NCBI GenBank assembly: GCA_027318645.1
Contig: DAHVOV010000133.1
Coordinates: forward strand, 1-46,634
Origin: Candidatus Aminicenantes bacterium
Lineage (GTDB): Bacteria; Acidobacteriota; Aminicenantia; UBA2199
Reading direction: 5' to 3'
Length of the DNA: 46,634 nucleotides
The translations under genes were made by a program, and so were the position numbers. Shown here piece by piece: positions 1,235 through 26,565 of this stretch. Position 1 is the first letter of the stretch, and every line of letters starts with the position of its first letter. Below the pieces are notes generated by a model. That model did no database searches and was not told the origin of the DNA. It worked only from the letters and a program-made list of their open reading frames with translations.

Positions 1235-3445
1235 TCATTCCCCGGCGCCGGGGTCGGTCACCTCGACGAGGCCGTTGCCGCAGACCACGCGCACGCTGCG
1301 CCCCAGGGCCAGCGCCGGCGCCAGCTCCGGGTGGGCGCGCAGCAGCGCGAAGTATTCGCTCGAGGCGAAGGCCACGCGCGTCAGCGGCAGCTTCCCCCGC
1401 GACGGGATGCGGCCGTCCACCCAGGTGCCGCGGTTCAGGTAGAAGGCGACGCCGCCGGCCGTCCGCACCTGGCCCGCGGCGGCGGCGAAGGCGCCGGAGA
1501 GCGGGCGGGCGGCGTCGACGGTCGACGCCTGGTTCAGCTTCTGCAGCTCGACGCTGGCGCGCACGCTGCCGGCCCCCGACTTGTCCTTCATGGCGGCGAA
1601 CTCCTCGCGCCGCTCGCGCTCCAGGGCCGGTGCGCCGGGGATGCCGCCGACGGTCATGTCGCTCTCGGCCAGGTCGCCGCGGCCGCGGCGGGCCGCCTCG
1701 TCCTCGACGATCAGGTAGCTGGTGTAGGGCGTGACGATGCCGTACTGCCGGGCCAGGCGCGTCGCCTCTTCGACCAGCTCCCGCTCCTCGCCGTGCAGGC
1801 GGATCTGGTCGAGCAGGAAGCCCACCCGGCGCGCGGCCCACAGCGGCGGCAGGAAGTCGTGGTTCGCGCTCTCCCGCGGCAGGTCGGCGCGGAAGGCGAA
1901 TTCCTCGGCGCGGCCGTTGACCGTGCCGCGCAGGGTGAAGACGGCCGGCCCGGAGCCGCGATAGCGGCCGACGACCGTCAGCGACGAGCCGCGATAGAGG
2001 TCGCCCAGCCGCCTCGGGTGGAGCTGCGAGGCGCCGGCCTGCGGCGAGACCTCCAGGCGAACGTCGCTCAGCACCGGCGAGCGGATCTTGTCGTAGAAGC
2101 GGGCGATGCCCGCCTCAAGGTCGTCGCCGGCGGCCAGGTAGGTGCGGAAGGTGCGCGTGCGCTCGGCGAACCCGTCCAGCAGGTGGGTGTTGATCTCGCT
2201 GCCGATGGCCACCGGGAACAGGCGCGCCCCGGCGGCGGCGCGGCCGGCCAGGGCCAGCAGCGCCTCGTCGCCGGTCTCGCCGATGGTCGGCCGGCCGTCG
2301 GTGACCAGGACGATCGCCCGCGAGCGTTCGGCGGAGCCCTTCTCCGCCAGTGCGGCCTTCAGCGCCTCCTCGCAGTTGGTGCCGCCGGCCGCCTGCCAGC
2401 CGGCGACGAACTCGCGCGCCCGGGCCAGGTTCGCGCCGTCGGCCGGGACCAGGCCGTTGAACAGCGACTCGGCCTCGGTCGAGAAGCGGACGACGCTGAA
2501 GCGGTCCCGGCGGCCCAGCCGCTCCAAACAGCGGGCGATCGCCGCCCGCGCCTGCTCGATGGCCCGGCCGGCCATGCTGCCCGACGTGTCGACCACGAAG
2601 GTGACGTCCTGGGCAGCGGCCTCCTCGCCGCCGCGCGCGAAGGACGGGGCGACGCTGAGGAAGAAGAAGCCGTCCTGGCCGCCGGCGCGGTGGGCGAGCA
2701 GGGAGAAGCCGAGGCGGCCCGTCGCCGGCGTGAAGACCAGGCGGAAGTCGCGGTCGGGGAGTGTGTCGCGGGCCGCGTAGCGGACCGTGGCGCCGCCGGC
2801 GCCGGCGCGCGAGACCTCCGCCGCGTGGGTGGGGCAGTGGATGTCGGCCAGGCCCTCCGAGGAATGCACCTCGACCACGAGGCTGACCTCGGGAACGGCC
2901 CGGGAGGAGAACTTCTCGGTGGCGAGCGGGTAGAGGTAGGAGACGGCGCCGTTGTCCTTCTCCAGCACCTCGTGGTAGGAGATGCGGATGCGCTTGCGGC
3001 CGCGCGGCTCGATGGGGAAGACGCGCATGCGGAACGCGCCGCGGCCGTCGTACTCCAGCAGCGCCGGGTCGCGCAGCCGGCGCACGATGTCCTCGTAGAT
3101 GCCGCGCGCCTTGGCGGCGTCGAGCAGCTCGGCCCGGGTCTCGCGGCCGTCGATCCACATGCTGAAGCGCTCGATGACGGCGCCGGCGGGCAGCGGGAAG
3201 AGGTAAACGCCCTCCAGGCGCGCGTCGTTGGGGTTGTAGAATTCCTGGTCGACCGAGGTCGTGGCCAACTGCCCGTCGATGGTCACGCGCACGTCGTGGC
3301 GCACCACCTCCAGCGGGAAGGGCGAGGCCGGCCCCGGCCGCGGCGGCCGCGGCACCACGATGAAGCCGTCTCCGCGCAGCGCCCCGGCGCCGGCGGCCAG
3401 CGCGGCCAGCAGCATCAGCATGACCTTCATGTTCGCATGTCCCAT
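1235..3445 (-). CDS. Secreted VIT + vWA domain protein (inter-alpha-trypsin inhibitor heavy chain-like)
   Basis: Signal peptide; VIT motifs (QEFYNP..EGVYLFPLP, DPALLEY); MIDAS DTSGSM...TDG; GIVTPYTSYLI; GAGGAGG RBS. Confidence 0.9.
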   Translation of the reverse strand: MGHANMKVMLMLLAALAAGAGALRGDGFIVVPRPPRPGPASPFPLEVVRHDVRVTIDGQLATTSVDQEFYNPNDARLEGVYLFPLPAGAVIERFSMWIDGRETRAELLDAAKARGIYEDIVRRLRDPALLEYDGRGAFRMRVFPIEPRGRKRIRISYHEVLEKDNGAVSYLYPLATEKFSSRAVPEVSLVVEVHSSEGLADIHCPTHAAEVSRAGAGGATVRYAARDTLPDRDFRLVFTPATGRLGFSLLAHRAGGQDGFFFLSVAPSFARGGEEAAAQDVTFVVDTSGSMAGRAIEQARAAIARCLERLGRRDRFSVVRFSTEAESLFNGLVPADGANLARAREFVAGWQAAGGTNCEEALKAALAEKGSAERSRAIVLVTDGRPTIGETGDEALLALAGRAAAGARLFPVAIGSEINTHLLDGFAERTRTFRTYLAAGDDLEAGIARFYDKIRSPVLSDVRLEVSPQAGASQLHPRRLGDLYRGSSLTVVGRYRGSGPAVFTLRGTVNGRAEEFAFRADLPRESANHDFLPPLWAARRVGFLLDQIRLHGEERELVEEATRLARQYGIVTPYTSYLIVEDEAARRGRGDLAESDMTVGGIPGAPALERERREEFAAMKDKSGAGSVRASVELQKLNQASTVDAARPLSGAFAAAAGQVRTAGGVAFYLNRGTWVDGRIPSRGKLPLTRVAFASSEYFALLRAHPELAPALALGRSVRVVCGNGLVEVTDPGAGE

Positions 3446-3473
3446 CGGCTCCTCCTCGGCGGCTTTCGCCGGC

Positions 3474-4598
3474 TCACTTCCCGAACACGTAGCCCTTTTG
3501 CTCCGCCTGGCGGCGCAGGGCGCTGATGACGGCCTCGTCGAGCCCGCCGGCCGCGGCCTGGCTCTTCTGCCGCTCGCGGAGGAAGCGCTCGCGCTCGGCG
3601 TTCAGCGCCGAGACCTTCTTGCGCATCTCCTCGCGCTTCTTCTGCATGGACGCCACGTATTCCTTGCGCTGCGCGGCCGACATCCCCTTCATCTCACGGG
3701 GCAGCTCGTCCTCGGCCAGCTCCTCCAGGCGGACGAGCCCCTTCTTCTCGGCGTCGACCAGGTCCCAGGCGGAGCTGTCGTACATCGGCGCCGCCTTGGC
3801 CGCGGCGCGCTCGGCCATGAACGCCCCGCCGACGGCGGCGGCGTTGGCGTCCTGGGCCTCCTGGCGCCGCTTGCCGTCCGCTCCCTGGCGGCCGTAGGCG
3901 ACGTAGGTGGCGTTGAGCTCGCGGCCCAGGCGCGCGATCTCGGCGTCCTGCGGCGCCGGGGGCGGCGGCGGGGCGTTGTCGGCGTCGATGGCGGCGTACT
4001 GGCCGTCGGCCAGGTCGGCGCCCTCCTTCCAGCCCGTCCGCACCCCTTCCGCGCGCGGGCCGCAGAAGATGGTGTTGACGACGATGCCGCCGCGGATGGC
4101 CTCGGCGCAGGCGGCGCGGTAGTCGACGCCGCCCTGGCTGAACGGCTCGTTGCCGGCGATGACGATCAGCTTCAGGTCGCCGCTGCCCGGGCTCCACTCG
4201 AGGCCGCGCGCGGCCTCGCGGATGACCTGGCCGCAGTACTCGTCGCCGCCGTTGGTGCGCAGGCGGAACAGCTCCTCGGAGACGCGGTCGAGGTCCTCGC
4301 TCAGCGGAACGACGCGCCGCAGGTACCCTTCAGCGGCGGGGATGGAGCTCTGGCCGTACTCGTACAGCGCCACCTGCAGCCGCGGGACGCGGCCCTGCCG
4401 GCGGGCCGTGGCCAGCTCGTTGACGATCTTCCAGATGCGCGAGCGCGCCTGGTCGATCAGGCCGTCCATGCTGCCCGAGGTGTCGAGCAGCACCGCCAGC
4501 TGGATCCGCGGGGCCGGTGATGCGGGAACCGCGCCGCCCCAAAGGCCGGTGCCCAATGAAACCGCCGCCAAGGTCAACCACACGCTTGTTTTGTTCAT
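3474..4598 (-). CDS. Secreted vWA domain protein with C-terminal coiled coil
   Basis: Signal peptide; LLDTSGSM MIDAS, GGDEYCG, IAGNEPF; AAGGAGG RBS. Confidence 0.85.
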   Translation of the reverse strand: MNKTSVWLTLAAVSLGTGLWGGAVPASPAPRIQLAVLLDTSGSMDGLIDQARSRIWKIVNELATARRQGRVPRLQVALYEYGQSSIPAAEGYLRRVVPLSEDLDRVSEELFRLRTNGGDEYCGQVIREAARGLEWSPGSGDLKLIVIAGNEPFSQGGVDYRAACAEAIRGGIVVNTIFCGPRAEGVRTGWKEGADLADGQYAAIDADNAPPPPPAPQDAEIARLGRELNATYVAYGRQGADGKRRQEAQDANAAAVGGAFMAERAAAKAAPMYDSSAWDLVDAEKKGLVRLEELAEDELPREMKGMSAAQRKEYVASMQKKREEMRKKVSALNAERERFLRERQKSQAAAGGLDEAVISALRRQAEQKGYVFGK

Positions 4599-4658
4599 GC
4601 CGCCTCCTTTCGCGGGGTTGGACGGCAGGATGCGCCCCGATTGCCCGGCGCGGGCGCA

Positions 4659-4687
4659 TTGACAAAGAGGCCCGGCGGGCTTATAGT
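4659..4687 (+). promoter_or_regulatory. sigma70 promoter of gatE-gatD
   Basis: TTGACA(4659-4664)-17 nt-TATAGT(4682-4687); GAGG at 4701-4704 before ATG4709. Confidence 0.8.
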
Positions 4688-4708
4688 AGCCATTCTCCCC
4701 GAGGAATC

Positions 4709-6712
4709 ATGAAACCATCCTTCGACCCGCTGCAGAACTGTGAAAGGAGCCGGAAAACGGTCGGCTGGACGCCGCGCCGCGAGACCCCGGCCGACTCCTA
4801 TGCCCGCCTGGGTTTCAAGTGCGGCCTGGAGATCCACCAGCAGCTGAAGACCGGCCAGAAGCTCTTCTGCCACTGCCCGGCCGGCCGCTACCACCGCCAC
4901 GACGACTTCGACGCCGAGATCGTGCGCCACATGCGCCCGACCCTTTCCGAGCTGGGCGAGTACGACGGCACGGCGCTGATGGAGTTCAAGACGCGCAAGG
5001 TCGTCGTCTACCGCATCAAGAACGAGACCACCTGCACCTACGAGATCGACGATACGCCCCCCTTCCGCATCAACCGCCAGGCCATGGAGATCGCCATCGA
5101 GGCGGCGCTGCTGCTGAAGTGCAACATCGTCGGCGAGCTGCACATCACCCGCAAGCAGTACCTCGACGGCAGCATCCCCACCGGCTTCCAGCGCACCGGC
5201 ATCCTGGGCATCGAGGGCGAGATCCCGCTGAGCCGCAAGAAGGTGCGCGTCATCCAGCTCAGCGTCGAGGAGGACGCCTGCCGCGAGGTCTCGGACCGGG
5301 GGCACGTGCGCGTCTACTCCACCGACCGCCTGGGCATGCCGCTGATGGAGATGGTCACCTATCCCGACATGCTCACCCCCGACGAGGCGGCCGAGGCGGC
5401 GCACTACCTGCGCTTCCTGGCGCGCAGCACCGGCAAGGTGCGCACCGGCATCGGCGCCGCCCGCGAGGACGTCAACGTCAGCGTCGCCGGCGGCACGCGC
5501 GTCGAGATCAAGGGCGTGGCGCACATCGCCTGGATCCCCGAGCTGGTGCACAACGAGGCCTTCCGCCAGAAGGCGCTGCTGGAGATCCGCGACGAGCTGA
5601 AGCGCCGCGTCGCCGACCCCGGCGGCTGGACGCCCGGCCACGCCGAGCTCGACCCGGCGGCGCTGGACTGCCGGCACCCCTTGCTGCAGGAGGCGCGGCG
5701 CAACAAGCTGCGGCTGCTGGCGGTCAACCTGCCCGCCTTCCAGGGTATCCTCTCCTTCTTCACCCAGCCGGGCCAGTCGTTCGCCGACGAGATCGCCGGC
5801 CGGCTGAAGGTCATCGCCTGCCTGGAGAAGCCCAACATGCTGCATTCCGAGCCCCTCGGCCCCGAAGCGGCCGACGAGGCGCTGTTCCAGGACGCGCGCC
5901 GGGCGCTGCAGGCGCGGGAGGGCGATGCCCAGGTCGTCTTCTGGGCCGCCGACGATGACGTGAAGACGGCGCTGGAGACGATCGCCGAGCGCTGCCGCCT
6001 GGCCTTCCAGGGCGTGCCCAACGAGACGCGCAAGAGCTTCGCAGACGGCACCACCGTCTTCGAGCGCGTCCTGCCCGGCCCCGACCGCATGTACCCCGAC
6101 ACCGACTCGGCGCCCATCCCCATCGAGGAGGAGCTCATCGCGCGCGTGCGCGCCGGGCTGCCGCAGGACGTCGACCGCCGCTTCGCCCAGTTCCGCCAGT
6201 GGGGCGTGCCCGCGGGCGCCTTCGCCTTCCTGCTGAAGCACAACCTGGCGCCGCTGATCGAGGGCATCGCGGCCGACTTCGCCGCCGAGCCGCGCTTCGT
6301 GGCCACGCTGCTGGCCCACGACCTCAAGCACCTGCTGGGCCGCCGGCGCTCCGCGCTGCCGGCGCCCTCCGGCGAGGCGGCCTTCCCCTTCGCCCGCCTG
6401 CGCGAGCTCTTCGCCCTCCTGGAGGAGGAGAAGCTGGAGCGCGGGATCGCCCGCGCCATGCTGCCGGTGCTGGTCGAGCACCCGAACATGGACCTGCGGT
6501 CGGTGCTGACCACCGTGGGCTTCAGCCGGCGGACGCGCAAGGAGGTGCTGGCGCTGCTGCCGCCGCTGCGGAAGAAATACCGGCACATCGCCACCTCCAA
6601 GGACCCCGGGGCGCCGGCGCGCTGGATCGCCGGCCAGCTGCGCCAGGCGGCGCTGGGCAACCTGCCCATGCGCGAGGTGGCCGAGGCGGCCGCCGCCGGA
6701 GGTGAAGCGTGA
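4709..6712 (+). CDS. gatE: Glu-tRNA(Gln) amidotransferase subunit E (archaeal-type GatE)
   Basis: GFKCGLEIHQQL, KLFCHCP, DGSIPTGFQRT, EEDA, DRLGMPLME, DVNVS..GG.RVEIKGV, RVLPGPDRMYPDTD; ~667 aa, longer than GatB, with an insertion region; start set to ATG4709 from promoter and RBS. Confidence 0.92.
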   Translation: MKPSFDPLQNCERSRKTVGWTPRRETPADSYARLGFKCGLEIHQQLKTGQKLFCHCPAGRYHRHDDFDAEIVRHMRPTLSELGEYDGTALMEFKTRKVVVYRIKNETTCTYEIDDTPPFRINRQAMEIAIEAALLLKCNIVGELHITRKQYLDGSIPTGFQRTGILGIEGEIPLSRKKVRVIQLSVEEDACREVSDRGHVRVYSTDRLGMPLMEMVTYPDMLTPDEAAEAAHYLRFLARSTGKVRTGIGAAREDVNVSVAGGTRVEIKGVAHIAWIPELVHNEAFRQKALLEIRDELKRRVADPGGWTPGHAELDPAALDCRHPLLQEARRNKLRLLAVNLPAFQGILSFFTQPGQSFADEIAGRLKVIACLEKPNMLHSEPLGPEAADEALFQDARRALQAREGDAQVVFWAADDDVKTALETIAERCRLAFQGVPNETRKSFADGTTVFERVLPGPDRMYPDTDSAPIPIEEELIARVRAGLPQDVDRRFAQFRQWGVPAGAFAFLLKHNLAPLIEGIAADFAAEPRFVATLLAHDLKHLLGRRRSALPAPSGEAAFPFARLRELFALLEEEKLERGIARAMLPVLVEHPNMDLRSVLTTVGFSRRTRKEVLALLPPLRKKYRHIATSKDPGAPARWIAGQLRQAALGNLPMREVAEAAAAGGEA

Positions 6713-8091
6713 GCGACCTCTTCAAGGGCTACAAGGGGCCGGCGCTGGAGCTGCTCAAGAAGTTCAACATCCGCGTCTGGAGCGACGCCAGCGTCAAGAC
6801 CAGCCGCGGCGACTTCCGCGGCATCGTGCTGCCGCGCGCCGAGAACGACGACGACCGGCACATCGTCCTCAAGCTGGCCACCGGATACAACGTCGGCATC
6901 GACGCCGGCACCGTGCGCGGCATGGAGGAGCTGGGCTACAAGGAGGCGCACTACAAGATCCCCGAGAAGGAGTTCCCGGTCTCGAAGGAGAAGAAGAACG
7001 TCAAGCTGCTGGGCACCGGCGGCACCATCGCCTCGCGCCTGGACTACCGCACCGGCGCCGTCATCCCCGCCTTCTCGCCCGGCGAGCTGTACGGCGCCGT
7101 CCCCGAGCTGGCCGACATCTGCAACCTGACGACCGAGAAGCTCTTCGCCGTCTTTTCCGAGAACATGGGCCCCGAGCAGTACAAGGGGCTGGCCAAGGCC
7201 ATCGGCGAGGAGATCCGCAAGGGCACCGACGGCATCGTCATCGGCCACGGCACCGACACCATGCACCACACCGCCGGCATCCTCTCCTTCATGGTGCAGA
7301 ACCCGCCCATCCCCATCGTCATGGTCGGCTCGCAGCGCTCCTCGGACCGGCCGTCGTCGGACGCGGCGCTCAACCTGATGCACGCCACCAAGACCGCCGC
7401 CGAGTCGGACATCGCCGAGGTCATGGTCTGCATGTTCGGCCCGACCTCGGACGAGTACGGCCTGCTGCACCGCGGCACGCGCGTGCGCAAGATGCACTCC
7501 TCCTACCGCTCCACCTTCCGCACCATCGGCGACATCCCGCTGGCCATGGTCGACCGCCGCCGGATCACGCCGCTGCGCAGCGACTACAACCGCCGGCGCA
7601 GAGACCGCGAGGTGAAGATCCTGCCGTACTTCGAGGAAAAGGTCGGGATGCTCTACTACTACCCCAACATGCAGCCCGACATGATCGACTCCATGGTCGA
7701 CCACGGCTACCGCGGCATCGTCATCGCCGGCACCGGGCTGGGGCATGTGAACAAGCCGCTCTACCCGGCCATCGTGCGCGCCGCCGAGAAGGGCGTGGCC
7801 ATCTACATGACGGTGCAGACGCTGTGGGGCTACGTGCACATGTTCGTCTACGACACCGGCCGCGACCTGATGGCCAAGGGCATCGTGCCGGCCGAGAACA
7901 TGCTGCCCGAGGTGGCGTACGTCAAGCTGGCCTGGGCGCTGGGGCAGACCGCCGACCTGGGCGAGGTGAAGCGGCTGATGCTCACCCCCATCGCCGGCGA
8001 GATCACCGAGCGCGAGCCGTACAACGGCTATTTGATCTTCCAGGGCGGCATCCCCGAGGTCGAGGAGTTCATCCGCAAGTTCCACAAATAG
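6709..8091 (+). CDS. gatD: Glu-tRNA(Gln) amidotransferase subunit D (GatD, asparaginase-type glutaminase)
   Basis: GTG start overlaps gatE stop (GTGA); N-terminal KLATGYNVG domain; GTGGTIASRLDYRTGAV, HGTDTM, GSQRSSDRPSSD, RKMHSS, MLPEVAYVKL. Confidence 0.95.
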   Translation: MSDLFKGYKGPALELLKKFNIRVWSDASVKTSRGDFRGIVLPRAENDDDRHIVLKLATGYNVGIDAGTVRGMEELGYKEAHYKIPEKEFPVSKEKKNVKLLGTGGTIASRLDYRTGAVIPAFSPGELYGAVPELADICNLTTEKLFAVFSENMGPEQYKGLAKAIGEEIRKGTDGIVIGHGTDTMHHTAGILSFMVQNPPIPIVMVGSQRSSDRPSSDAALNLMHATKTAAESDIAEVMVCMFGPTSDEYGLLHRGTRVRKMHSSYRSTFRTIGDIPLAMVDRRRITPLRSDYNRRRRDREVKILPYFEEKVGMLYYYPNMQPDMIDSMVDHGYRGIVIAGTGLGHVNKPLYPAIVRAAEKGVAIYMTVQTLWGYVHMFVYDTGRDLMAKGIVPAENMLPEVAYVKLAWALGQTADLGEVKRLMLTPIAGEITEREPYNGYLIFQGGIPEVEEFIRKFHK

Positions 8092-8183
8092 GCCGACGGA
8101 ACCGCCGGCGGCTTGAAATTTCGCAGGCGGATGGTTCATGCCGCGCCTATTGCAACTTCGGCGAAACCAGATAAAATCCGTTC

Positions 8184-8756
8184 ATGACTTCCCGACCGAT
8201 CCATCACAAATTACGCCGCGACCTGGAAGAAAGCCGGATTGATGGCAAGGTGATCGTTTTATTCCTGCCGATCGCGTTCGTCACGTATCTCATCCACGAG
8301 TCCGGGCATTGGGCATTCGGCGAGCTTCTGGGAAACGACATGGTGCTGGGCCTGAACAGCTCTGCCCCGAAAAGCGGCCATTTCATCCATGGTTCCCATG
8401 CTCTGTGGTCCGCGCTGGGGGGGCCTGCCTTCACATTGCTGCAAGCGCTCGTATTTTTCTTGATCGCACGGATGACAAGATCGATCCATGCATATTCCGC
8501 CGTATTTTTCGCCGCGTTCTCGAGACTCTTCTCGATCGTTTTCGGCGGCATCGACCTGCAGGACGAGGCAAGAATCGCCTCCGCTTTGGGCGCGAACAAG
8601 TATTGCGTCGCGGCGATCGTGATGGCGCTGCTTTTTCTGGTCTTGTGGTGGTGCACGCGGATGATGAAGCTGAAAATGAAGGCCGTGGGATATTTTGCCG
8701 TTCTAGGAACGACGGCCATGCTGATCGTGATCGGAGTAAACGGATTGATCGCGTGA
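8184..8756 (+). CDS. Membrane protein with HExxH motif (M50/site-2-protease-like)
   Basis: Several TM helices; IHESGH, GGP turn, later QDE motif; lower GC than flanks. Confidence 0.6.
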   Translation: MTSRPIHHKLRRDLEESRIDGKVIVLFLPIAFVTYLIHESGHWAFGELLGNDMVLGLNSSAPKSGHFIHGSHALWSALGGPAFTLLQALVFFLIARMTRSIHAYSAVFFAAFSRLFSIVFGGIDLQDEARIASALGANKYCVAAIVMALLFLVLWWCTRMMKLKMKAVGYFAVLGTTAMLIVIGVNGLIA

Positions 8757-8927
8757 TTCGGTCCTTGCCTTTTCGTGCCCAGGGGAATAGCATCTGCCGG
8801 GGCAACGCATGGCGAACGGCGTTCAGCGTTCGCTTCCCCCTTTCCAGTCCCGATTCAAGGAGGAACCGTGGCAATCAAGGCAAAAACCGGCATTGCATTT
8901 CCGGCCAGTGTTGCCAATAATGGAATC

Positions 8928-9662
8928 ATGAAGAAAAATAGTCTTCCCAGTCTGCTTGTTTTGCCGGTGCTCCTTCTGGCCGCCGCCGCCACGGTCCAAG
9001 CCCGGAACCTGGACATAAAGTGGATCGAGGTCGAGGGGGGAGCGTTCACGCCGGCAAGCGGCGGTTCGACACGTCCGATCACGCTCGACGGTTTCTTCAT
9101 GAGCGCGACGGAGGTGACCTTCGATCAGTTTGACGCCTACTGCGAGGCGACAGGGGCAAGAAAGCCGGATGACGCGGGTTGGGGCAGGGGCAGCCGGCCG
9201 GTCCTGAACGTGTCCTGGGAGGAGGCGGCCGCCTTCTGCCGCTGGCTGAGCCGGGAGATCGGGGCTGAAATCCGCCTGCCGAATGAGGCGGAATGGGAAT
9301 ATGCCGCAGCGGGCGGCAACCGGAGCAAAGGCTACCGGTACAGCGGCAGCAATACCTGGCGGGAGGTATCGTGGTCCGAGGGGAATTCCGGCGGCATGCC
9401 CCACCCGGTCGGGGGAAAGAAGCCCAATGAACTGGGCCTGTACGACATGAGCGGCAACCTCTGGGAGATGTGCGCAGATTGGCCTGCAGGCGATCCGGCG
9501 AAGCCGCGATCCGCCAGCGGGAGCCGCGACGGGGGCGTGAAGCGCGCGGTGCATGGGAATTCGTATGACAATCCCGCCAGCGACCCCAGGCGCGCCGACG
9601 TGCACGTCTTTCTCGGGGAAGGCCACATCAACGTTGGCTTTCGCGTCGTTAAGACGATATAA
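8928..9662 (+). CDS. Secreted FGE-sulfatase (SUMF1/EgtB/PvdO) family protein
   Basis: Signal peptide; TEVT, PVLNVSW, RLPNEAEWEYAA, PNELGLYDMSGNLWE, VGFRVV. Confidence 0.85.
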   Translation: MKKNSLPSLLVLPVLLLAAAATVQARNLDIKWIEVEGGAFTPASGGSTRPITLDGFFMSATEVTFDQFDAYCEATGARKPDDAGWGRGSRPVLNVSWEEAAAFCRWLSREIGAEIRLPNEAEWEYAAAGGNRSKGYRYSGSNTWREVSWSEGNSGGMPHPVGGKKPNELGLYDMSGNLWEMCADWPAGDPAKPRSASGSRDGGVKRAVHGNSYDNPASDPRRADVHVFLGEGHINVGFRVVKTI

Positions 9663-9809
9663 GGCGGTCCCGCCCCAATGCTGGAGCGGAACGGCAGCAG
9701 CGGAGATCGGACCGGCGTCTTGAATTTTCGCCGCCGGTGGAGTATAGATGCCATCCGCGAAAAGCACGCGGACCCGCTCCGCGAAGCGGAGGGTCCGGCG
9801 GGAGGGAAA

Positions 9810-10781
9810 ATGAACAAGACCGCCCATGTCGCCGCCTGGATCATGGCGCTGGCCATCGGCCTGGCGGCCGCGCCGCTGCCGGCGCGGACGGCCCCCGAGA
9901 TGAGGAAATGGGAGGCGCTCGGCGCGCAGCACAGGAACGAATTCTCCGGCCAGCCGCAGAAGAAGGCGATGTTCATCGCCGGCCTGGTCGCGGAGCGCCT
10001 GGCCCAGGACGGCGTCAAGCCCAACGCCGACGTCATCGGCCGCGCGGGGGCGCTGGCGACGCACGGCGACCAGGCCGCCGGGACCTGCGGCGACGTCGCC
10101 GAGGTCATGCGCAACGCCTTTGTCGGCGCCGGCTTCGCCCACCACGAGATATTCAAGCTGGTGGTGAGGAAGTTGGGGCTGAACCAGCTGAACCGCGGCT
10201 GGGTGTTCGACGTCAACATCGAGCACGTCGTGTTCGGCGCCGTGGTGGACGGCAAGCCGGTCGTGTTCGAGGCCTGGGGCTACGGCGGGGAGAACGGCTC
10301 GTTCGCCGGCTTCTACAAGAGCGTCTGGAACGGCATGGACCTGCACGTCTGGCTCGCCACGATGCGCAAACACGGCTACGACACCTACTCGTACGGCGAC
10401 GACCATTTCCGGCCGGTCGACGCCGACCGCATCTCGAACTTCCTGAGGAAGCTCGAGTTCAAGGGCTCCAGCCGGCCGGCCAAGCGCCCGACGCTTGTTC
10501 CGGGAACAAGCCCCGGCGGCGGCGACGACACCGCCCGCGTCGAGTCCGAGTTCCGTTCGCTCTATCCCCTCTGGCTAAGGAAACGGGACGACCCCACGAG
10601 CGTCACCACCGTCCTGGTCAACGCCCGCAGGGAGGGCGACGGCCGCTACTTCATCAGCATCGAGACCCGCTGCCGCAACGCCCAGGGCGCCAGCTGGGTG
10701 TGCGCGTCGCGCACCCTGTACATGACGCTCGCCGACCTGCGCGAGAGCGTCCAGGTCTACAAGCGCGACCTGGGGCGATGA
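9810..10781 (+). CDS. Secreted hypothetical protein, possible transglutaminase/papain-like Cys-His-Glu fold
   Basis: GGAGG RBS; signal peptide; GTCGD...EHVVF...VVFEAW. Confidence 0.6.
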   Translation: MNKTAHVAAWIMALAIGLAAAPLPARTAPEMRKWEALGAQHRNEFSGQPQKKAMFIAGLVAERLAQDGVKPNADVIGRAGALATHGDQAAGTCGDVAEVMRNAFVGAGFAHHEIFKLVVRKLGLNQLNRGWVFDVNIEHVVFGAVVDGKPVVFEAWGYGGENGSFAGFYKSVWNGMDLHVWLATMRKHGYDTYSYGDDHFRPVDADRISNFLRKLEFKGSSRPAKRPTLVPGTSPGGGDDTARVESEFRSLYPLWLRKRDDPTSVTTVLVNARREGDGRYFISIETRCRNAQGASWVCASRTLYMTLADLRESVQVYKRDLGR

Positions 10782-14760: not shown

Positions 14761-14939
14761 GCCCCGGGGGGGCGTCCGCTGCGGCATGAATTTCTGGAAT
14801 CTGCTTGGAACAACCGTCCCGGTGCTCCTTTCCTTCCGATCTCTCCCGGCATGAGAGGGGCCCCTGTGTTTCTTTTTGCGTGAGACGTTCCGGTTTTATT
14901 ACTATTTTTTATATGACTGGACTCATAAAGGGGGGTACA

Positions 14940-16253
14940 ATGACGCGCATCTCATCTTTTGCGATCACGTTATTCGCTGTTTTCTCGTTTTCGCTATCCG
15001 CGCAGAGCATCACCGTGACCAAGCCCGCCGCCAACGAATCCTGGACCAAGGGCGAAAGCCATACGATCCAATGGACAAAACAGGGGGAGATGCCCACCCA
15101 AGTCCGAATCGTCCTGAGAAAAAAAGAGTCCGCGGAGGCCACCCTGGTGATTGCGGATCAAGCCCCGAACAGCGGATTCTACCAATGGCTGGTGCCAGCC
15201 AGTGTCCCGGACGGAGAATACGTGATCCGGGTCAGGGTCAAGACCGCGGAAATCAGCGACGAAAGCGCCGGCTTCAGCATCGTTTCGTCCTCAGCAGGGC
15301 TGCAGCCCGCTTACAAGGCCGTCCGGCCGGGCAGTTTGAAGGGGCAGCCGATCGCCTATTCCATCAAGGTCGTTAATCCTGCCGCCGGCGATTCCTATCA
15401 GCAGTTGGACACGATCAACATTCGGGTCCAGGCCAACACGGGTCCTGCTGACGGGACGGGGGACGGATTCGACCTCGACCTCTACAACGAAGCCGGGACG
15501 GCCATGATGGCCGATATCCTCTCGGGCGCAATGACCCAGACAGCCCCGGGAGTCTACGTCCATGCCTGGAAAATGCCGCTCATCGACTCGGTCCCAGACG
15601 GCCGGTACACCATCCGCGCACGGAGCTGGAGCCAGAAAATCACTGGCTTCAGCGCTCCCTTCTGGATCAGGACGCCAGGCGCCGAGGAGAAGATCTCGAT
15701 CGAGGCCGTGATCGCGAACAATTGGATCTTCAAAAAGGAGCCGTCGGGCCCAAAACCCACTGAACACGTGGCTGATGAGCGACCAGGGGAGGCCCGGATC
15801 GGATGGTACTACTCCGGGACAAGCAGTATTTACTCGCACAGCTACCTGGGCATCATCTACAGGGCGCAAATGCAATTCCCCATGGATTACCTCAAGCCCA
15901 GGCTTGCCAGGTTAAAAAAAGCGACCCTGACTCTCAGGCAAACCCAGTTCGGCGTCCGCAAGAACGTCGGCGTTCGCCCCTGGACCATCGGCAAGCTGTT
16001 GATCCTCAAGCAGTCCTGGAACGACTTCTTCGACACGCCTTCGATCTTTTTCAAGGATGTCCCGATAAACGCCCCGACGGAGTGGAGCTGTGATGCCACC
16101 GGATTGGTCCGGGACTGGCTGGGCGGAGCAAAGCCCAACCACGGTCTCCTCGTTACGGCGGAATCGGAAGGATGGCTTCGCGACATCTTCTGCTACGCGG
16201 TCTCGTTCTACAAGGGGAAGCTCGACTTGACCTTCTTTGAGCCGCTCAATTGA
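14940..16253 (+). CDS. Secreted protein with two Kre9/Ser-Thr-rich-GPI-type Ig-like domains and a DNRLRE-like C-terminal domain
   Basis: ITVTKP...W..G....IQW, NSGFYQW..P...PDGEY.IRV; DATGLVRDWL...NHGLL; lower GC. Confidence 0.65.
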   Translation: MTRISSFAITLFAVFSFSLSAQSITVTKPAANESWTKGESHTIQWTKQGEMPTQVRIVLRKKESAEATLVIADQAPNSGFYQWLVPASVPDGEYVIRVRVKTAEISDESAGFSIVSSSAGLQPAYKAVRPGSLKGQPIAYSIKVVNPAAGDSYQQLDTINIRVQANTGPADGTGDGFDLDLYNEAGTAMMADILSGAMTQTAPGVYVHAWKMPLIDSVPDGRYTIRARSWSQKITGFSAPFWIRTPGAEEKISIEAVIANNWIFKKEPSGPKPTEHVADERPGEARIGWYYSGTSSIYSHSYLGIIYRAQMQFPMDYLKPRLARLKKATLTLRQTQFGVRKNVGVRPWTIGKLLILKQSWNDFFDTPSIFFKDVPINAPTEWSCDATGLVRDWLGGAKPNHGLLVTAESEGWLRDIFCYAVSFYKGKLDLTFFEPLN

Positions 16254-20442: not shown

Positions 20443-20496
20443 GCCGCGCATGAGCGCGGACCGCGAAACGGCATGTCGTTCGCGAAGGAGGATGGG

Positions 20497-21543
20497 ATGA
20501 GAACGAGAGCGAGAAAAATAGGCGGCGCCGTCCTGGTGATCGCCGTCCTGCTGGCTGGCTGCCGGGCGCGGCGCGGGGCGGAGGCCCCGACCCGGCCGGC
20601 GCGGGTCGTGGTCAGCCGGGTCGCCCCGGCCGAGGCGGGCCGGGAATTCGCCTACAGCGGCACCATGGCCGAATCGGAGACCCTGCCCCAGGGCTTCGCC
20701 GTGGCCGGGACCGTCACCCGCGTCCACGTCAACGAGGGCGACGTCGTCGCCCGGGGCGCGCTCCTGGCCGAGCTGGACGACGCGAACTTCCGCCAGGCCG
20801 CCGAGATGACCGCGGCGGCCGAGAAGCAGGCCGAGGACGCCTTCCAGCGCCTCTCGCGAATGTACCGGAACGGCAACCTCCCCGAGATCAAGTACGTCGA
20901 GGTCGAGACCGGCCTGCAGAAGGCCCGCGCCGCCGCCGCTATCGCCCGGAGGAACGTCGCCGACTGCCGCCTGCGCGCCAGCGCTTCCGGCTACGTCGGC
21001 AGGCGGGCCGTCGACCCGGGCATGACGGCCGTTCCCGGGCTGGCCGCGATCACCGTCGTCCGCATCGACAAGGTCTTCGCCCGCGTCCCCGTGCCGGAGA
21101 ACGACCTCCCCCTGCTTCATGAGGGCGGCCCGGCCGCGATCCGCATCGGCGCCCTGGGCGGGCGGGAGTTCGCGGGCCGCATCGAGGACATCGGCGTCGT
21201 CGCCGACCCGCTGGCCCACTCCTACAAGGTGCGCATCGCCGTCGCCAATCCCGACCGGGCCATCAAGCCCGGCATGGTCTGCACGGCGGTCGTCAAGGGG
21301 CTGGAGAGGAGCAGCGGGCTGGTCATCCCCAACCGGGCCGTCCTGGTCGACGAGACCGGCCGCCACTACGTCTATTGCCTCGACGCGGCCGGCGCCAGGG
21401 CCTTCGTGCGCACCGTCCGGCTCGGCGAGCTGCTGCAGAACGGCATCCGCATCACGGAGGGGCTGACCGCGGGGGACGCGGTCGTCGTCTACGGCCAGCA
21501 CAAGCTCGTCGACGGTGCGGCCGTCCAGGCCGTCGAACGGTAG
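20497..21543 (+). CDS. RND efflux periplasmic adaptor (MFP), lipoprotein
   Basis: LLAGC lipobox; GTVTRVHVNEGD lipoyl half; IKPGM; AAGGAGG RBS. Confidence 0.9.
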   Translation: MRTRARKIGGAVLVIAVLLAGCRARRGAEAPTRPARVVVSRVAPAEAGREFAYSGTMAESETLPQGFAVAGTVTRVHVNEGDVVARGALLAELDDANFRQAAEMTAAAEKQAEDAFQRLSRMYRNGNLPEIKYVEVETGLQKARAAAAIARRNVADCRLRASASGYVGRRAVDPGMTAVPGLAAITVVRIDKVFARVPVPENDLPLLHEGGPAAIRIGALGGREFAGRIEDIGVVADPLAHSYKVRIAVANPDRAIKPGMVCTAVVKGLERSSGLVIPNRAVLVDETGRHYVYCLDAAGARAFVRTVRLGELLQNGIRITEGLTAGDAVVVYGQHKLVDGAAVQAVER

Positions 21544-21564
21544 AGCCGGCAAGGGAGCTCCCCC

Positions 21565-24500
21565 ATGACGGAAAAGAAGCGCCAGCTGATCGACGTCCTG
21601 CTGCGCTACCAGCAGCCGGTCGCCGTGCTCGTCGTGATCCTGATCGTCGCCGGGGTCGTCGCCCTGGTCAAGATGCCCCGGGACGAGTTCCCCGAGATCA
21701 AGGTCCGCCAGGGGATCATCGTGGGCGTCTATCCCGGCGCCTCCGCGGAGCAGGTCGAGGCCGAGGTCACCGACAAGGTGGAAAAGTACCTTTTTCAGTA
21801 CAAGTCGGTCCGGCGCTCCCGGACGCACTCGCTGTCCCGCGAGAACGTGATGATCGTCTATGTCGAGGTCGCGGAGGACGAGAAGGACCCCGACGGCTTC
21901 TGGCTGAAGCTCCGCCACGGCCTGAACGAGCTCAAGCCCCAGCTTCCCGCGGGCCTGATATCGCTCACCGCCGACAACGACTTCGGCAACACCTCGGCGC
22001 TGCTGCTGTCGGTGCGCTCCGACGGCAAGACCTACCGGCAGCTGGAGGACTGCATCCGGCGGCTGGAGAGCGACGTCCGCCGCGTCCCCTCGGTTTCCCG
22101 CGTCAAGCGCTACGGCGCCCAGAGGGAGGAGATCGGCGTCTATCTCGACAACGCCCGGCTGGCCCGCTACGGCATCCGGCCCCTGACCCTGGCCGCCGCC
22201 ATCATCCCCCAGAGCGGGGCCGGCTACGCCGGCGAACTGGACGACGGCCGGCTCGTCCGCCCCCTGCACGTTCCCGCCAGCTACCGGACGGAGAACGACC
22301 TGGCCGAGCAGATCGTCTACGCCGATCCCCTCGGCACGGTCGTGCGCCTGAAGGACGTGGCGCGCGTCGTCCGCGAGTACGAGGAGCCGCAGTCGGCCGT
22401 CCGGGTCAACGGCAAGAAGTGCCTGGTCGTCTCGCTGGAGATGCAGGGCGGGAACAACATCGTGGACTTCGGCCGGGACGTCGGCCGGGTGATCGCCGGC
22501 TTCCGCAGGACCCTCCCCGCCGACGTCAAGGTCGATATCATCTCCAACATCCCCGAGGCGGTGGCCCGCTCCATCGGCAGCTTCCTGAGGGAATTCGCCA
22601 TCGCCATCCTGTCGGTCATCGCCGTGACCCTGATCCTGCTTCCCGGCCGCGTGGCCCTGGCCGCGGCCGCGACCATCCCGATCACCATCCTGTCCACCCT
22701 GGGCATCCTGTGGGCCTTCGGCATCGACCTGCAGACGGTCTCCCTGGCGTCGCTCATCCTGGTCCTGGGGCTGGTCGTCGACGATCCCATCGTCATCATC
22801 GACAACTACGTCGAGAAGCTCGACCTGGGCCTCGACCGCCGCGCGGCGGCGTCGCTCAGCGTCAGGGAGCTCTTCCCCTCGGTCTTCGCGGCCACCGTCA
22901 TCATCATCTGCTGCTTCGTGCCCATGCGCTTCTTCCTGTCCGGCATGGCCGGCGACTTCATCCGCTCCATGCCGCCGACGGTCATCACCTCCCTGACCGC
23001 CTCGCTGCTGGCCGCCTCGCTGCTGACCCCGCTCATGTGCTTCCGCTTCATCCGCCAGGGCGTGCGCGTCAACCGGACCGGCCGCAAGGCCGCCTTCCTG
23101 TCCGGGCTGCAGCGGCATTACGACCGCATCGTGGAGAGGGTCTTCAAGAGGAAGGCGCTGGTCATCGCCGCCAGCGCCGTCTCCTTCGCCGCCGGCCTGG
23201 CCATCATCTTCATGGTCCCCACCCAGCCCTTCCCCAAGATCGAGCGCAACCAGTTCGCGGTCGAGGTCACGCTGCCCGCGGGGAGCTCGCTGCAGGAGAC
23301 CGACGCCGTGATGCGGGACCTCGAGGGACAGCTGATGAAGGACGCCCGGGTCAAGGTGGTGACCGCCTTCGTCGGCACCAGCTCGCCGCGCTTTCATTCC
23401 ATCTATGCCCCGCGCTTTCCCTCGCGGGACCTCGGCCAGCTGGTCGTCCTGACCCGTTCCAACCAGGACACCCTGGACATCCTCGACGAATACAGCCGGA
23501 ATTTCGCCGGCCGCTACCCGTCGGCCGAGGTCAAGTGGAAGCAGCTGGAGCTGGTCAACTTCGTCGAGCCGATCGAGGTGCGCATCAGCGGCGACGACAT
23601 CCGCGACCTGAAGGCGACCGCCGGCAAGGTGGCGGCCATCCTCCGGGCGGCCCGGGGCGTGGACCTGGTGCGCAGCGACTTCCGGCAGCCGCTCCAGGGC
23701 GTGGACGTGAAGGTCCGCAAGGACGAGGCCAACCGGCTGGGCTTTCCCCGGGCCATGTTCGGCTATTCGCTCATGACCGGCACCAAGGGGCTGCCCGCGG
23801 CCACGGTCTGGGAGGGCGATTACCCGCTGCCGGTGCGGCTGAAGTTCGAGGGCATGGCGCATGCCGGCCCGGCCGACCTGGAGAACCTCTACCTCACCTC
23901 GCCCCTCCTGGGAGCCTCGGTGCCGCTCCGCCAGCTGGCCGAGCTCCGCCCCTCATGGAGCGAGGGCGACATCGTCCGCCGCAACGGGGTGCGGACGCTG
24001 AGCGTGCTGGCCGAGGTGGAGCGGGGCGTGTACGCGTCCGCCGTCACCCGCAAGGTGAAGCCGCTGATCGACGGCCTGGACCTCCCCGACGGCGTCCGCA
24101 TCGAATACGGCGGCGAGCTGGAGATGAGCCGGGACTACTTCACGCCCTTCTATTACGCCATGATCGTCACCATCATCCTGATCTTCCTCATCCTGATGTT
24201 CGAGTTCCGCAGCCTGAAGAAGTCGCTCCTGATCATGATCATCATGCCCCTGACCCTCTTCGGCGCCGCCTTCGGCATCCTGGTGACGGGCTACCCGTTC
24301 AGCGTCACCGCCTTCATCGGGCTGATCGCCCTGTTCGGCATCGTCGTCCGCAACGGCATCATCTACGTCCAGTACGCCGATGAGCTCCGCCGCGAGCAGG
24401 GGTGCGGGGCGGAGGAGGCGGCCATCGCCGCCGGCAAGCGCCGCATGCGGCCGATCTTCCTGACCGCCATGGCCGCCGCCGTCGGCGTCGTGCCCATGAT

Positions 24501-24654
24501 CCTGAGCGGCTCCTCCCTGTGGGGGCCGCTGGGCTCGGTCATCTGCTTCGGCCTGCTCTTCGCCCTCGTCCTCTCCCTGCTCATCCTGCCGATCCTGTAC
24601 TATCTTCTGCATCGGAACGAGCCCGTGGCCCATGGGAAGGGGGAACCCGCATGA
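21565..24654 (+). CDS. RND efflux permease (AcrB/AcrD/AcrF family)
   Basis: 1029 aa; YPGASAEQVE, GLVVDD, GIVVRNGI, RMRPIFLT. Confidence 0.95.
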   Translation: MTEKKRQLIDVLLRYQQPVAVLVVILIVAGVVALVKMPRDEFPEIKVRQGIIVGVYPGASAEQVEAEVTDKVEKYLFQYKSVRRSRTHSLSRENVMIVYVEVAEDEKDPDGFWLKLRHGLNELKPQLPAGLISLTADNDFGNTSALLLSVRSDGKTYRQLEDCIRRLESDVRRVPSVSRVKRYGAQREEIGVYLDNARLARYGIRPLTLAAAIIPQSGAGYAGELDDGRLVRPLHVPASYRTENDLAEQIVYADPLGTVVRLKDVARVVREYEEPQSAVRVNGKKCLVVSLEMQGGNNIVDFGRDVGRVIAGFRRTLPADVKVDIISNIPEAVARSIGSFLREFAIAILSVIAVTLILLPGRVALAAAATIPITILSTLGILWAFGIDLQTVSLASLILVLGLVVDDPIVIIDNYVEKLDLGLDRRAAASLSVRELFPSVFAATVIIICCFVPMRFFLSGMAGDFIRSMPPTVITSLTASLLAASLLTPLMCFRFIRQGVRVNRTGRKAAFLSGLQRHYDRIVERVFKRKALVIAASAVSFAAGLAIIFMVPTQPFPKIERNQFAVEVTLPAGSSLQETDAVMRDLEGQLMKDARVKVVTAFVGTSSPRFHSIYAPRFPSRDLGQLVVLTRSNQDTLDILDEYSRNFAGRYPSAEVKWKQLELVNFVEPIEVRISGDDIRDLKATAGKVAAILRAARGVDLVRSDFRQPLQGVDVKVRKDEANRLGFPRAMFGYSLMTGTKGLPAATVWEGDYPLPVRLKFEGMAHAGPADLENLYLTSPLLGASVPLRQLAELRPSWSEGDIVRRNGVRTLSVLAEVERGVYASAVTRKVKPLIDGLDLPDGVRIEYGGELEMSRDYFTPFYYAMIVTIILIFLILMFEFRSLKKSLLIMIIMPLTLFGAAFGILVTGYPFSVTAFIGLIALFGIVVRNGIIYVQYADELRREQGCGAEEAAIAAGKRRMRPIFLTAMAAAVGVVPMILSGSSLWGPLGSVICFGLLFALVLSLLILPILYYLLHRNEPVAHGKGEPA

Positions 24655-25997
24655 ACAAGACACCGCTCATCTGCGCGGCGGCATGGCTGCTGGCGGCCGG
24701 CGCGCTCCTGCCCGCGGAGAAACTGACGCTCGAGCAGAGCCGGCGCCTGGCCCTGGAGAACAACGCCGGCATCCGCAACAGCCGCCTGGAGGCCGAGGCC
24801 GCCCGCGAGGCGAAACAAGCGGCCTTCACGAAGTTCTTTCCCGCGCTGAGCGCCGGCGGGGCCTCGTTCAAGGCCGACAAGCCGCTTTTCCAGTTCACCA
24901 TCGAGGGCGGCAACCTGCCGGTCTACGACGGCAACCCGGCCCACCTGCCCTTCGCCACCCAGTTCGCCTATTTCCCCTCCTCGTCGATCGGCATGTTCGG
25001 CAAGGGGACCTTCGGGCTGCTCAACGCCGTCCAGCCGGTCTTCGCCGGCGGGCGCATCGTCAACGGCAACAGGCTGGCCGCCCTCGGCGTCGAGGCCGGC
25101 GGCTACAAGGAGCGGCTGGCCCGCAGCGAGGCGCTCCTCTCCACCGAGGAGCAATACTGGCGGGTGGTCGCCCTGGAGCAGAAGCTGCAGACGGCCGCCG
25201 CCTACGAGGATCTCCTCCGGCGCCTGCAGGTCAAGGTCGAGGCGGCCTATGAGGCCGGCCTGGCGACGAAGAACGAGGTCCTGAAGGTCAGGCTGAAGCT
25301 CGCCGAGCTGATGGTCAACCGCTCCAAGCTCCGCAACGGCCGCGAGATCTCGGCCATGGCCCTCTGCCAGCACATCGGCATCCCCTACGACCCGCCGCTC
25401 GAGCTGGAGGCGGCGCCCCCGGCCGACGGCCCCCCCGATTCCTTCAAGGCCGACCACCGGGCCGTGCTGCCGGCGCGGCCGGAATACAAGCTGCTGCAGG
25501 CGGCCGTCCGCGCGGAGGGCCTGCAGAGCCGGCTGAAGCTCGGCGAATTCCTGCCCCAGGCGGGCATCGGCCTGGCCGGCATCTACATGAAGGCCGACGA
25601 CGCCAAGGGGACCACCAACGGCATGGTCTACGGGAGCGTCTCGGTCCCGCTTTCCGGCTGGTGGGAAGCCGCCCATGCCATGGGCGAGCGCAAGGCCCGC
25701 GAGAGGATCGCCCGCAACAACCTCCAGGACAGGTCCGAGGCGCTGCTCATCCAGATGGAGAAGGCCTGGCAGGACCTGAACGACGCGGCGAAGCTGGTCC
25801 AACTGGCGCAGGCGGCCCTGGCCCAGGCCGAGGAGAACCTCAAGGTCAACGAGGACAGCTTCGAGAACGGCCTGAGCGACGTGTCCGATCTCCTGGAAGC
25901 CCAGGCCATGAGGCAGCAGGCCCTTGACCAGGCGACCGACGCGGCCGTCGCGTACCGCCTGAAGGTGGTCGGCTACCTGGCGGTGACGGGACGCTGA
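24651..25997 (+). CDS. TolC family outer-membrane efflux protein
   Basis: ATGA overlap with permease; signal peptide; QPVFAGG, RPEYK, FENG...DLLEAQ. Confidence 0.9.
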   Translation: MNKTPLICAAAWLLAAGALLPAEKLTLEQSRRLALENNAGIRNSRLEAEAAREAKQAAFTKFFPALSAGGASFKADKPLFQFTIEGGNLPVYDGNPAHLPFATQFAYFPSSSIGMFGKGTFGLLNAVQPVFAGGRIVNGNRLAALGVEAGGYKERLARSEALLSTEEQYWRVVALEQKLQTAAAYEDLLRRLQVKVEAAYEAGLATKNEVLKVRLKLAELMVNRSKLRNGREISAMALCQHIGIPYDPPLELEAAPPADGPPDSFKADHRAVLPARPEYKLLQAAVRAEGLQSRLKLGEFLPQAGIGLAGIYMKADDAKGTTNGMVYGSVSVPLSGWWEAAHAMGERKARERIARNNLQDRSEALLIQMEKAWQDLNDAAKLVQLAQAALAQAEENLKVNEDSFENGLSDVSDLLEAQAMRQQALDQATDAAVAYRLKVVGYLAVTGR

Positions 25998-26052: not shown

Positions 26053-26565
26053 ATGAAACGTGGTCCCGTCCTGCTGGTCCTGCTGGCGCTGCTGCCGGGG
26101 CTGGTTCTGGCCGGGCCGGGACTGCGCCTGCCGGGACCCGGCGCGGCCGGCGAGCGGAGGATCGACCACCGTGTCCGCGTCTGGTCCGACACCACGCCGC
26201 CGATCAACCTGACCCACCTCTTCGCCGGCGAGATCAACCGCCGCGGCAAGCCGGTCGGCTTCCACTCCCGCCCCGGCGGCGTCGACCCCCATGGCAGCGG
26301 CGTGGCGCGCGTCATCGACCGCCCCGGTCGCTCCGGCGTCTACACCGCCGTGGTCTGGATCGGGCGGCGCGGCCGCACCAAGTTCTCGACCTTTTATCCC
26401 GACCGGCTGACGCGGGCGCAGGTGATCGCCGCCGTCCTGGGCGCCTTCCGCAAGGGGCGGCGCAGCGGCGAGAGCTTCCGCGGCCCGTCGGGGCTCGGAT
26501 TCACCATCGAGGGGTATTTCCAGGGCGGTCGCATCCAGACGGCCTATCCTGTCTATTCCCGCTGA
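26053..26565 (+). CDS. Secreted bacterial EndoU-domain ribonuclease
   Basis: Signal peptide; THLFAGEIN..G..VGFHS, KFSTFYP, IEGY...IQTAYP. Confidence 0.82.
   Translation: MKRGPVLLVLLALLPGLVLAGPGLRLPGPGAAGERRIDHRVRVWSDTTPPINLTHLFAGEINRRGKPVGFHSRPGGVDPHGSGVARVIDRPGRSGVYTAVVWIGRRGRTKFSTFYPDRLTRAQVIAAVLGAFRKGRRSGESFRGPSGLGFTIEGYFQGGRIQTAYPVYSR

Follow-up and report, generated by a model that had tools for sequence, protein, structure and literature searches.

A GatDE-type amidotransferase gene pair kept beside glutaminyl-tRNA synthetase in Candidatus Aminicenantes and other bacteria

The stretch of DNA analysed here, contig DAHVOV010000133.1 of the Candidatus Aminicenantes bacterium assembly GCA_027318645.1 (46,634 nt in full; hereafter the window), carries an intact gatE-gatD pair, the genes of the two-subunit amidotransferase GatDE, in a genome that also encodes glutaminyl-tRNA synthetase (GlnRS). 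Such pairs are not rare in bacteria, and the window's copy belongs to a large bacterial clade. We consider it somewhat more probable than all other outcomes combined (roughly 0.55) that the pair acts as a working Glu-tRNA(Gln) amidotransferase beside GlnRS, a reading that draws on gene conservation and genomic context. Two reviews describe GatDE as an archaeal signature or as restricted to Archaea (PMC2330236, PMC9499178), which is also how the original prediction, made from the letters of the window alone, regarded it. This confinement is contradicted by the bacterial contig and by the best 80 of at least 591 confirmed loci, all of which are labelled bacterial. In the reviews, the absence of GatDE from Bacteria also serves in reasoning on the last common ancestor and on why GlnRS was never adopted by Archaea. 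A large bacterial GatDE clade living with GlnRS contradicts the archaeal-signature view and weakens the GlnRS-uptake argument, because the two enzymes can coexist in a cell. As the prediction suspected, database annotations already exist, the NCBI and JGI pipelines naming these proteins GatE, and our literature search, with subscription journals outside its scope, found no paper on GatDE in bacteria. The database names are thus known, and what is new is the context with GlnRS in Bacteria, outside the usual GatDE context.

Family membership, catalytic residues and bacterial origin

GatE exceeds the cut-offs of two NCBIfam equivalog models, TIGR00134 (413.7 bits, cut-off 319.55) and, narrowly, NF003107 (459.5 bits, cut-off 456), as does GatD those of NF003217 (507.8 bits, cut-off 310) and TIGR02153 (505.1 bits, cut-off 324). 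All six catalytic motifs named in the original prediction were found, each once: EIHQQL (residues 41-46), EEDA (187-190) and DVNVS (254-258) in GatE, and GTGGT (102-106), HGTDT (180-184) and KMH (261-263) in GatD. The best solved relatives are archaeal GatE and GatD (2d6f, 1zq1; E values 6e-90 and 9e-117). As regards the insertion domain of the cradle and the YqeY-like C-terminal tail expected of GatE, the protein aligns without a break to 2d6f_C (32-543) and to 1zq1_C (30-643); among Pfam families only PF02934 matches the window's GatE, PF02938 and PF02637 giving no match. GatE residues H43, E187 and E214 align with the Mg ligands His15, Glu157 and Glu184 of Methanothermobacter thermautotrophicus GatE, whose mutation kills the enzyme (PMC2330236), and they are invariant in 9 of 9 members of the bacterial clade aligned (alignment A1).

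In its two subunits, domain order, Mg ligands and asparaginase-type motifs, the pair resembles archaeal GatDE (2D6F from M. thermautotrophicus, 1ZQ1 from Pyrococcus abyssi). It differs in living with GlnRS and with a U1-A72 tRNA-Gln, not the A1-U72 given for Archaea, in the placement of its GatE in a separate clade (39 rows, support 100), in about 30 extra N-terminal GatE residues that are conserved in the clade, and in the gene order gatE-gatD, which is fixed in the bacterial loci. GatCAB with GluRS2 (Thermotoga maritima 3AL0), the system of the sister families described below, shares the chemistry, and GatE and GatB share the PF02934 cradle. However, the amidase of GatDE is the asparaginase-type GatD and not GatA, there is no GatC, the two systems are mutually exclusive in the class, and GatB models give only 53-143 bits on GatE (the equivalog models 121-143, against cut-offs of 315-338). 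GatD likewise keeps the Thr, Lys and Asp motif set of type I L-asparaginases and scores 380 bits with TIGR00519, below its GatD equivalog scores (505-508); unlike those enzymes, it has the N-terminal domain PF18195 and its gene is translationally coupled to gatE.

The contig is bacterial, and the chimeric or archaeal contig that the original prediction named as grounds for abandoning it is excluded. An independent wastewater run (X3) yielded one 30,686-nt contig spanning window positions 2500-10500 with 25 differences and one gap, contigs of an activated-sludge run (X2) bridge both borders of the operon, and near-identical DNA occurs in sequencing runs of at least nine studies. The window also encodes an RND efflux operon with its outer-membrane factor, VIT-vWA proteins, an FGE-sulfatase domain protein and a fucosidase. 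The nearest relatives of the genome that have names carry the labels Acidobacteria and Candidatus Aminicenantes, and in relatives the contigs bearing gatE-gatD reach 481 kb and more. The source assembly comprises 2.8 Mb in 408 contigs and is 93.8% complete and 0.7% contaminated. Furthermore, the host-like codon usage noted earlier is borne out, the third-codon-position G+C content of gatE (0.94) and gatD (0.98) agreeing with that of neighbouring genes (0.81-0.97). That an archaeal fragment was misassembled or misbinned into a bacterial genome, as the archaeal description of the family in the reviews might suggest, is therefore extremely improbable: the X3 and X2 contigs cross the operon and its borders, the flanking genes and the composition are bacterial and host-like, and relatives hold the pair on long contigs.

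Phylogeny, distribution and exchange with GatCAB

Trees were built with FastTree (146 rows) and with a quick IQ-TREE run (80 rows), six GatB proteins from sister families serving as outgroup. GatE forms one clade (support 100) apart from the six GatB rows, so that the branching of GatE inside GatB, which would have spoken against the prediction, is not observed. The window's GatE lies in a tight, multi-phylum bacterial clade (support 100), nested in a 39-row clade (support 100) that holds every bacterial-labelled row together with the type found in a second family of the class (f3); the bacterial identity of this larger clade rests on 8 labelled rows and on the loci, and one basal row bears the label Thermoplasmata archaeon but comes from a 5.16-Mb contig. 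A separate classical clade has 27 rows in IQ-TREE (support 96) and 75 in FastTree. Its proteins score 577-660 bits against 1zq1_C, compared with 297 for the window's GatE and 361 for a bacterial-type clade member, and it is identified as archaeal from the scores of two of its members with the solved archaeal proteins. Branching inside the tight clade does not follow taxonomy, Aminicenantes appearing at three or more positions, which points to repeated transfer among bacteria; with the f3 type as root, the basal branches belong to genera of f1, the family of the window. The old, ameliorated transfer that had been proposed is thus retained in part: the composition is host-like and the pair is inherited in the family, but it is a member of a large bacterial clade and not the product of a singular transfer.

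The 120 best protein clusters are 62-96% identical to the window's GatE, and a scan of one genome per species gave at least 599 pattern matches, with at least 591 confirmed relatives. The best 80 of these loci fall in Bacteroidales and other Bacteroidota, Ignavibacteria, Zixibacteria, Cloacimonadota, Clostridia, Chloroflexia, Omnitrophota, Desulfobacteraceae and Aminicenantes, and they include three isolates, Clostridium tagluense A121, Perlabentimonas gracilis M08_MB and Clostridiales bacterium oral taxon 876 F0540. Labels of metagenome-assembled genomes are unreliable here: locus L026, labelled 'Clostridia', and G031, a member of the window's family, are one genome. At 71 of the 80 loci gatE has gatD next to it, downstream and in the same orientation; among the nine without an adjacent gatD, six end 750 nt or less from gatE and three have 4 kb downstream that lacks gatD. 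This adjacency, together with the coupling of the genes, suggests that GatD and GatE would bind each other as an α2β2 complex. Identity to the window's copies is 71.9-96.1% for GatD (64 full-length copies from many phyla) and 53.0-92.8% for GatE (80 copies).

No conserved neighbour beyond gatE and gatD was found in the 80 loci, where the recurrent items are open reading frames in overlapping frames and then families present in at most 12-15 loci, the next commonest real neighbour family occurring in 12 of 80. The ten neighbour families scanned were FtsX/MacB, OstA/LptD-like, NamZ, Amidase_3, SLT, MlaD, NUDIX, an aminotransferase, one sorting-domain protein and one without a family. A cell-wall link through these neighbours was considered and is not supported, since they reflect local Bacteroidales synteny of envelope genes.

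Within the class, we surveyed 61 genomes, namely the window's and 36 others of f1, two of f3 and 22 of seven other families. A gatE over the cut-off is present in 24 of the 37 f1 genomes (the window's included), in both f3 genomes and in no genome of the other families, and seven further f1 genomes have gatE in pieces; inheritance of GatE within f1 is supported by these counts. The distribution of glnS runs parallel (32/37, 2/2 and 0/22), and that of gatB is the reverse (0/37, 0/2 and 21/22). The gatB families have two genes for glutamyl-tRNA synthetase (GluRS). We compared GluRS copies at the column of Thermus thermophilus Arg358, which we take to be the residue that reads C36 of tRNA-Glu and that marks discriminating enzymes. 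In the eight gatB-family genomes examined, one copy has Arg in this column; the second copy has it in a single genome, the other seven showing Glu, Asn or Thr. Between families of the class, gatE with glnS and gatB with a second GluRS are therefore in exact mutual exclusion. Because asparaginyl-tRNA synthetase (AsnRS) is present throughout the class (asnS found in 56 of 61 genomes), GatCAB of the sister families must be needed for Gln, and it follows that the class switched from GluRS2 and GatCAB to GlnRS and GatDE, the latter probably having taken the place of the former. Such a switch is a clean natural case of replacement in the translation apparatus. As kin are not independent, the association counts as one or two events and not as statistics; the GatE of f1 and that of f3 belong to different lineages. 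In the order around C. tagluense, 65 of the 93 genomes scored have glnS and 2 of 93 have gatE (8 genomes unscored in each), from which nothing follows on a gatE-glnS association, as glnS is common there anyway.

Proposed function of the pair beside GlnRS

In the host genome glnS scores 732 bits and lies directly after the 3' part of gltX, and asnS, asnB and glnA are all over their cut-offs. Profile searches of this genome matched gatB only at gatE itself, gave nothing over the cut-off for gatA and did not find asnA. The proposal that GatDE had replaced GlnRS or GatCAB holds for the second, GatCAB being missing with no gatB in the genome, but not for the first: GlnRS stays, and since glnS is present GatDE did not replace it. 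The two partners that the proposal brought with it are not borne out either. Both host tRNA-Gln genes have U1-A72, the bacterial pair, with G73, and so are not of archaeal type (the ARAGORN drawing of the UUG gene is one base out of register), and nothing points to a non-discriminating GluRS, the single host copy having Arg at the Arg358 column. The usual context of GatDE, a non-discriminating GluRS in an organism without GlnRS, is thus not that of the host.

The host gltX (2-841) and glnS (934-2544) are neighbours on another contig (C23), an order repeated in relatives (e.g., G024:C72 and G026:C1), and in several relatives gltX-glnS lies about 37-45 kb from gatE on one contig. Both host tRNA-Glu genes (C51, 16224-16296, minus strand; C362, 4122-4196, plus strand) have a G1·U72 wobble as first acceptor pair, their acceptor ends being GGCCCGU/ACGGGCU and GGGGCUA/UAGCCCU. 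These ends are found again in tRNA-Glu(UUC) loci of the family, and the one sister-family tRNA-Glu examined (G050) has G1-C72 (loci examined: L194-L223, L226 and L227; L224). As amidotransferases read the first pair, the wobble may bear on discrimination.

An amidotransferase kept beside GlnRS has precedents in Thermus, Deinococcus and Bdellovibrio (PMC4206432), where it likewise accompanies direct GlnRS and AsnRS. In these organisms the enzyme is GatCAB and is explained by tRNA-dependent Asn synthesis, whereas here it is GatDE together with AsnB; because AsnB is present in the host, that explanation does not carry over. For the same reason tRNA-dependent asparagine synthesis was rejected as the reason for the host's amidotransferase (asnS and asnB over cut-off), and glutamine auxotrophy was rejected because glnA is present.

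Other carriers show a similar setting. Forty were searched as whole genomes, three of them being f1 relatives (L026 = G031, L018 = G006, L019 = G002). All but one have glnS (39/40), the sole exception having gatB; gatB is present in six and missing in 34, and asnS is present in 37. Two full GluRS genes occur in eight of the 40, and a GluRS2-like or non-Arg GluRS copy in nine. The sole GluRS found in C. tagluense (G081, C19 25744-27291, L238) has Asn at the Arg358 column, and the second GluRS of Clostridiales oral taxon 876 (G068, C30, L193) is divergent in the same way; these divergent enzymes of the two clostridial carriers have 500-516 residues, score 321-340 bits and carry Asn or Ser at the Arg358 column, where their alignment is less certain. 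In the GatE tree, five basal-branch genomes share an extra GluRS paralogue with Tyr in this column, and another subclade accompanies a GluRS2-like paralogue. Carriers with either paralogue plausibly run a full indirect route beside GlnRS, and this supports canonical activity for the clade.

The substrate, activity and physiological role that we propose for the pair are modelled on its homologues. GatE would bind Glu-tRNA(Gln) and phosphorylate the glutamyl side chain with ATP and Mg, GatD would free ammonia from Gln or Asn, and GatE would then amidate the activated glutamyl group. As GlnRS is expected to make Gln-tRNA(Gln) directly, GatDE would not be the sole supplier for translation and would provide either a second route or a clean-up of Glu-tRNA(Gln). 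We favour such a working enzyme because the catalytic residues are kept, the ratio of nonsynonymous to synonymous substitution (dN/dS; see below) is low and gatE-gatD adjacency is conserved, because the exchange in the class is exact and the Gln job is the only one open to a Glu-specific GatDE, and because some carriers have a GluRS2-like or non-Arg partner.

Several observations weigh against this proposal. No source of Glu-tRNA(Gln) is visible in the host, with its one Arg-type GluRS, and in the window's genus, where 25 of 27 genomes gave a GluRS match, those that matched have one Arg-type GluRS next to glnS and no second full copy. In 33 other carriers, 41 GluRS copies were compared, and 36 of them likewise have Arg in the Arg358 column. 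No tRNA is needed to obtain Gln and Asn, glnA and asnB being present. Archaeal GatDE reads A1-U72 (PMC2330236) and the host tRNA-Gln has U1-A72, so that recognition must differ. The margin of GatE over the NF003107 cut-off is only 3.5 bits, and the stem of the tight clade is long (0.52-0.54 changes per column), a feature as compatible with altered specificity as with adaptation to bacterial tRNA. These observations raise the question of what feeds a Glu-specific amidotransferase when the only GluRS looks discriminating, a question that is testable, three carriers being cultured.

Some of these points would also suit a changed substrate in the bacterial clade, that is, ATP-dependent amidation of a different aminoacyl-tRNA or of a carboxylate not borne by tRNA, outside Gln-tRNA(Gln) supply, which we regard as possible but a good deal less probable. 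GlnRS accompanies the pair in the host and in nearly all other carriers, most of these lack gatB and have a single Arg-type GluRS, and Bacteroidales and similar carriers keep the pair despite a complete direct system; the long stem and the higher identity of GatD than of GatE, an unusual constraint, point the same way. Against it, the catalytic residues and domain order of GatE are all those of a tRNA-dependent enzyme, no conserved neighbour suggests another pathway (the commonest are Bacteroidales envelope genes only), a tRNA-dependent asparagine route is unneeded with AsnRS and AsnB present, and some carriers own a GluRS2-like partner. In its fuller and equally tentative form, the clade might have spread by transfer through mostly anaerobic bacteria of many phyla with GlnRS and a discriminating GluRS and have left Gln-tRNA(Gln) supply for a different amidation. 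That amidation could conceivably be of another aminoacyl-tRNA, or the pair could serve specifically to correct mischarged tRNA and so set the fidelity of translation, either being a doubtful rather than a leading option. If true, such a departure would mean that a tRNA-dependent amidotransferase has taken on a new role in the cell.

Whatever the substrate, both genes are under purifying selection. By the Nei-Gojobori method, dN/dS is 0.13-0.15 for gatD (three same-genus pairs, with L018, L014 and L015) and 0.25-0.33 for gatE (four same-genus pairs), and these ratios are if anything too high because extreme codon bias depresses dS. One same-genus genome stands apart: in L019 (G002), GatD is 76.8% and GatE 81.6% identical to the window's, other same-genus GatD being at about 91%, and gatD has a dN/dS of 0.50, which hints at exchange of gatD within the genus. 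Contigs from an RNA-library run (X18) match gatE (4963-5442) and gatD (6926-7078) with 0-1 differences, which hints only weakly at transcription, as DNA may be present in such libraries; contigs of RNA run X16 carry 13-38 differences and represent relatives, not the host organism, and stretches without RNA cover carry no information.

It is thus improbable that the genus retains the pair as a dispensable, functionless remnant of an earlier indirect pathway, whether as a passenger or as a selfish cassette that spread, even though GluRS2, the canonical partner, was not found among the matched genomes of the genus and gatE is in pieces in six same-genus genomes (G001, G003, G005, G007, G027, G032). 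Values of dN/dS well under 1, the intact gatE in 24 of the 37 family genomes and the near-identical DNA in runs of nine or more studies all speak against decay. Furthermore, of the six genomes that have gatE in pieces, four are 71-79% complete and assembled in 4-20 contigs, and in two of these glnS is broken as well (two pieces with two TGA in G027, truncated matches in G005 and G007), so that the broken copies probably reflect assembly errors rather than decay. The weight left by the working amidotransferase and its alternatives we assign to explanations that we have not thought of.

Gene signals and other genes of the window

The full-length gatE and gatD reading frames and their GTGA overlap were confirmed (Table 1). 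The gatE frame is open over 4517-6712, and the ATG at 4709 gives a protein of 667 residues that matches the length and N terminus of its closest relatives, the nearest being P0001 (667 residues, 96% identity, 100% coverage). The gatD gene starts with GTG at 6709 and stops with TAG at 8089-8091, and GGAGG lies 9-13 nt 5' of its start. The near-consensus sigma-70 promoter reported earlier is confirmed as a promoter-like site, and such sites number 2 in 4400-8400 against 0.3 expected from shuffles. Terminator-like sites in the region number 3 against 1.6 expected, so that the hairpin after gatD is weak evidence.

Table 1. Coordinates of the gatE-gatD pair and associated signals in the window
Feature	Position	Strand	Description
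gatE	4709..6712	+	667 amino acids; tRNA-dependent kinase/transamidase subunit; GatB_N cradle, with a putative insertion; C-terminal region alignable to P. abyssi GatE through residue 643
gatD	6709..8091	+	460 amino acids; asparaginase-type amidase subunit with GatD_N domain (PF18195, PF00710, PF17763)
GTGA overlap (gatD GTG start and gatE TGA stop)	6709..6712	+	direct sequence reading
Sigma-70-type promoter-like site, TTGACA-17 nt-TATAGT	4659..4687	+	11/12 consensus match
Terminator-like G+C-rich hairpin, then TTGAAATTT on the + strand	8092..8109	.	directly 3' of the gatD stop; scored on the - strand

An Rfam scan of the window gave nothing at gathering score. Directly after gatD, positions 8184-8756 encode a 190-residue multi-pass membrane protein without a Pfam family; the gene has a promoter-like site of its own (8150-8177), lies in DNA of lower local G+C content (0.61 against about 0.70) and is not kept beside gatD in other loci. 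Further downstream, the tripartite RND efflux operon is complete (20473-25997), with an HlyD-type fusion protein, an AcrB-type pump and an outer-membrane factor; the annotated frames of the pump and the outer-membrane protein overlap by about 250 nt, and the start of the latter is probably later. It is followed at 26053-26565 by a 170-residue open reading frame with a bacterial EndoU nuclease domain, which may be a toxin module of polymorphic-toxin type. Two paralogous-looking proteins with a Kre9/KNH-like Ig domain are encoded at 14805-16253 and 26967-28424, the first of them in a second stretch of lower G+C content.

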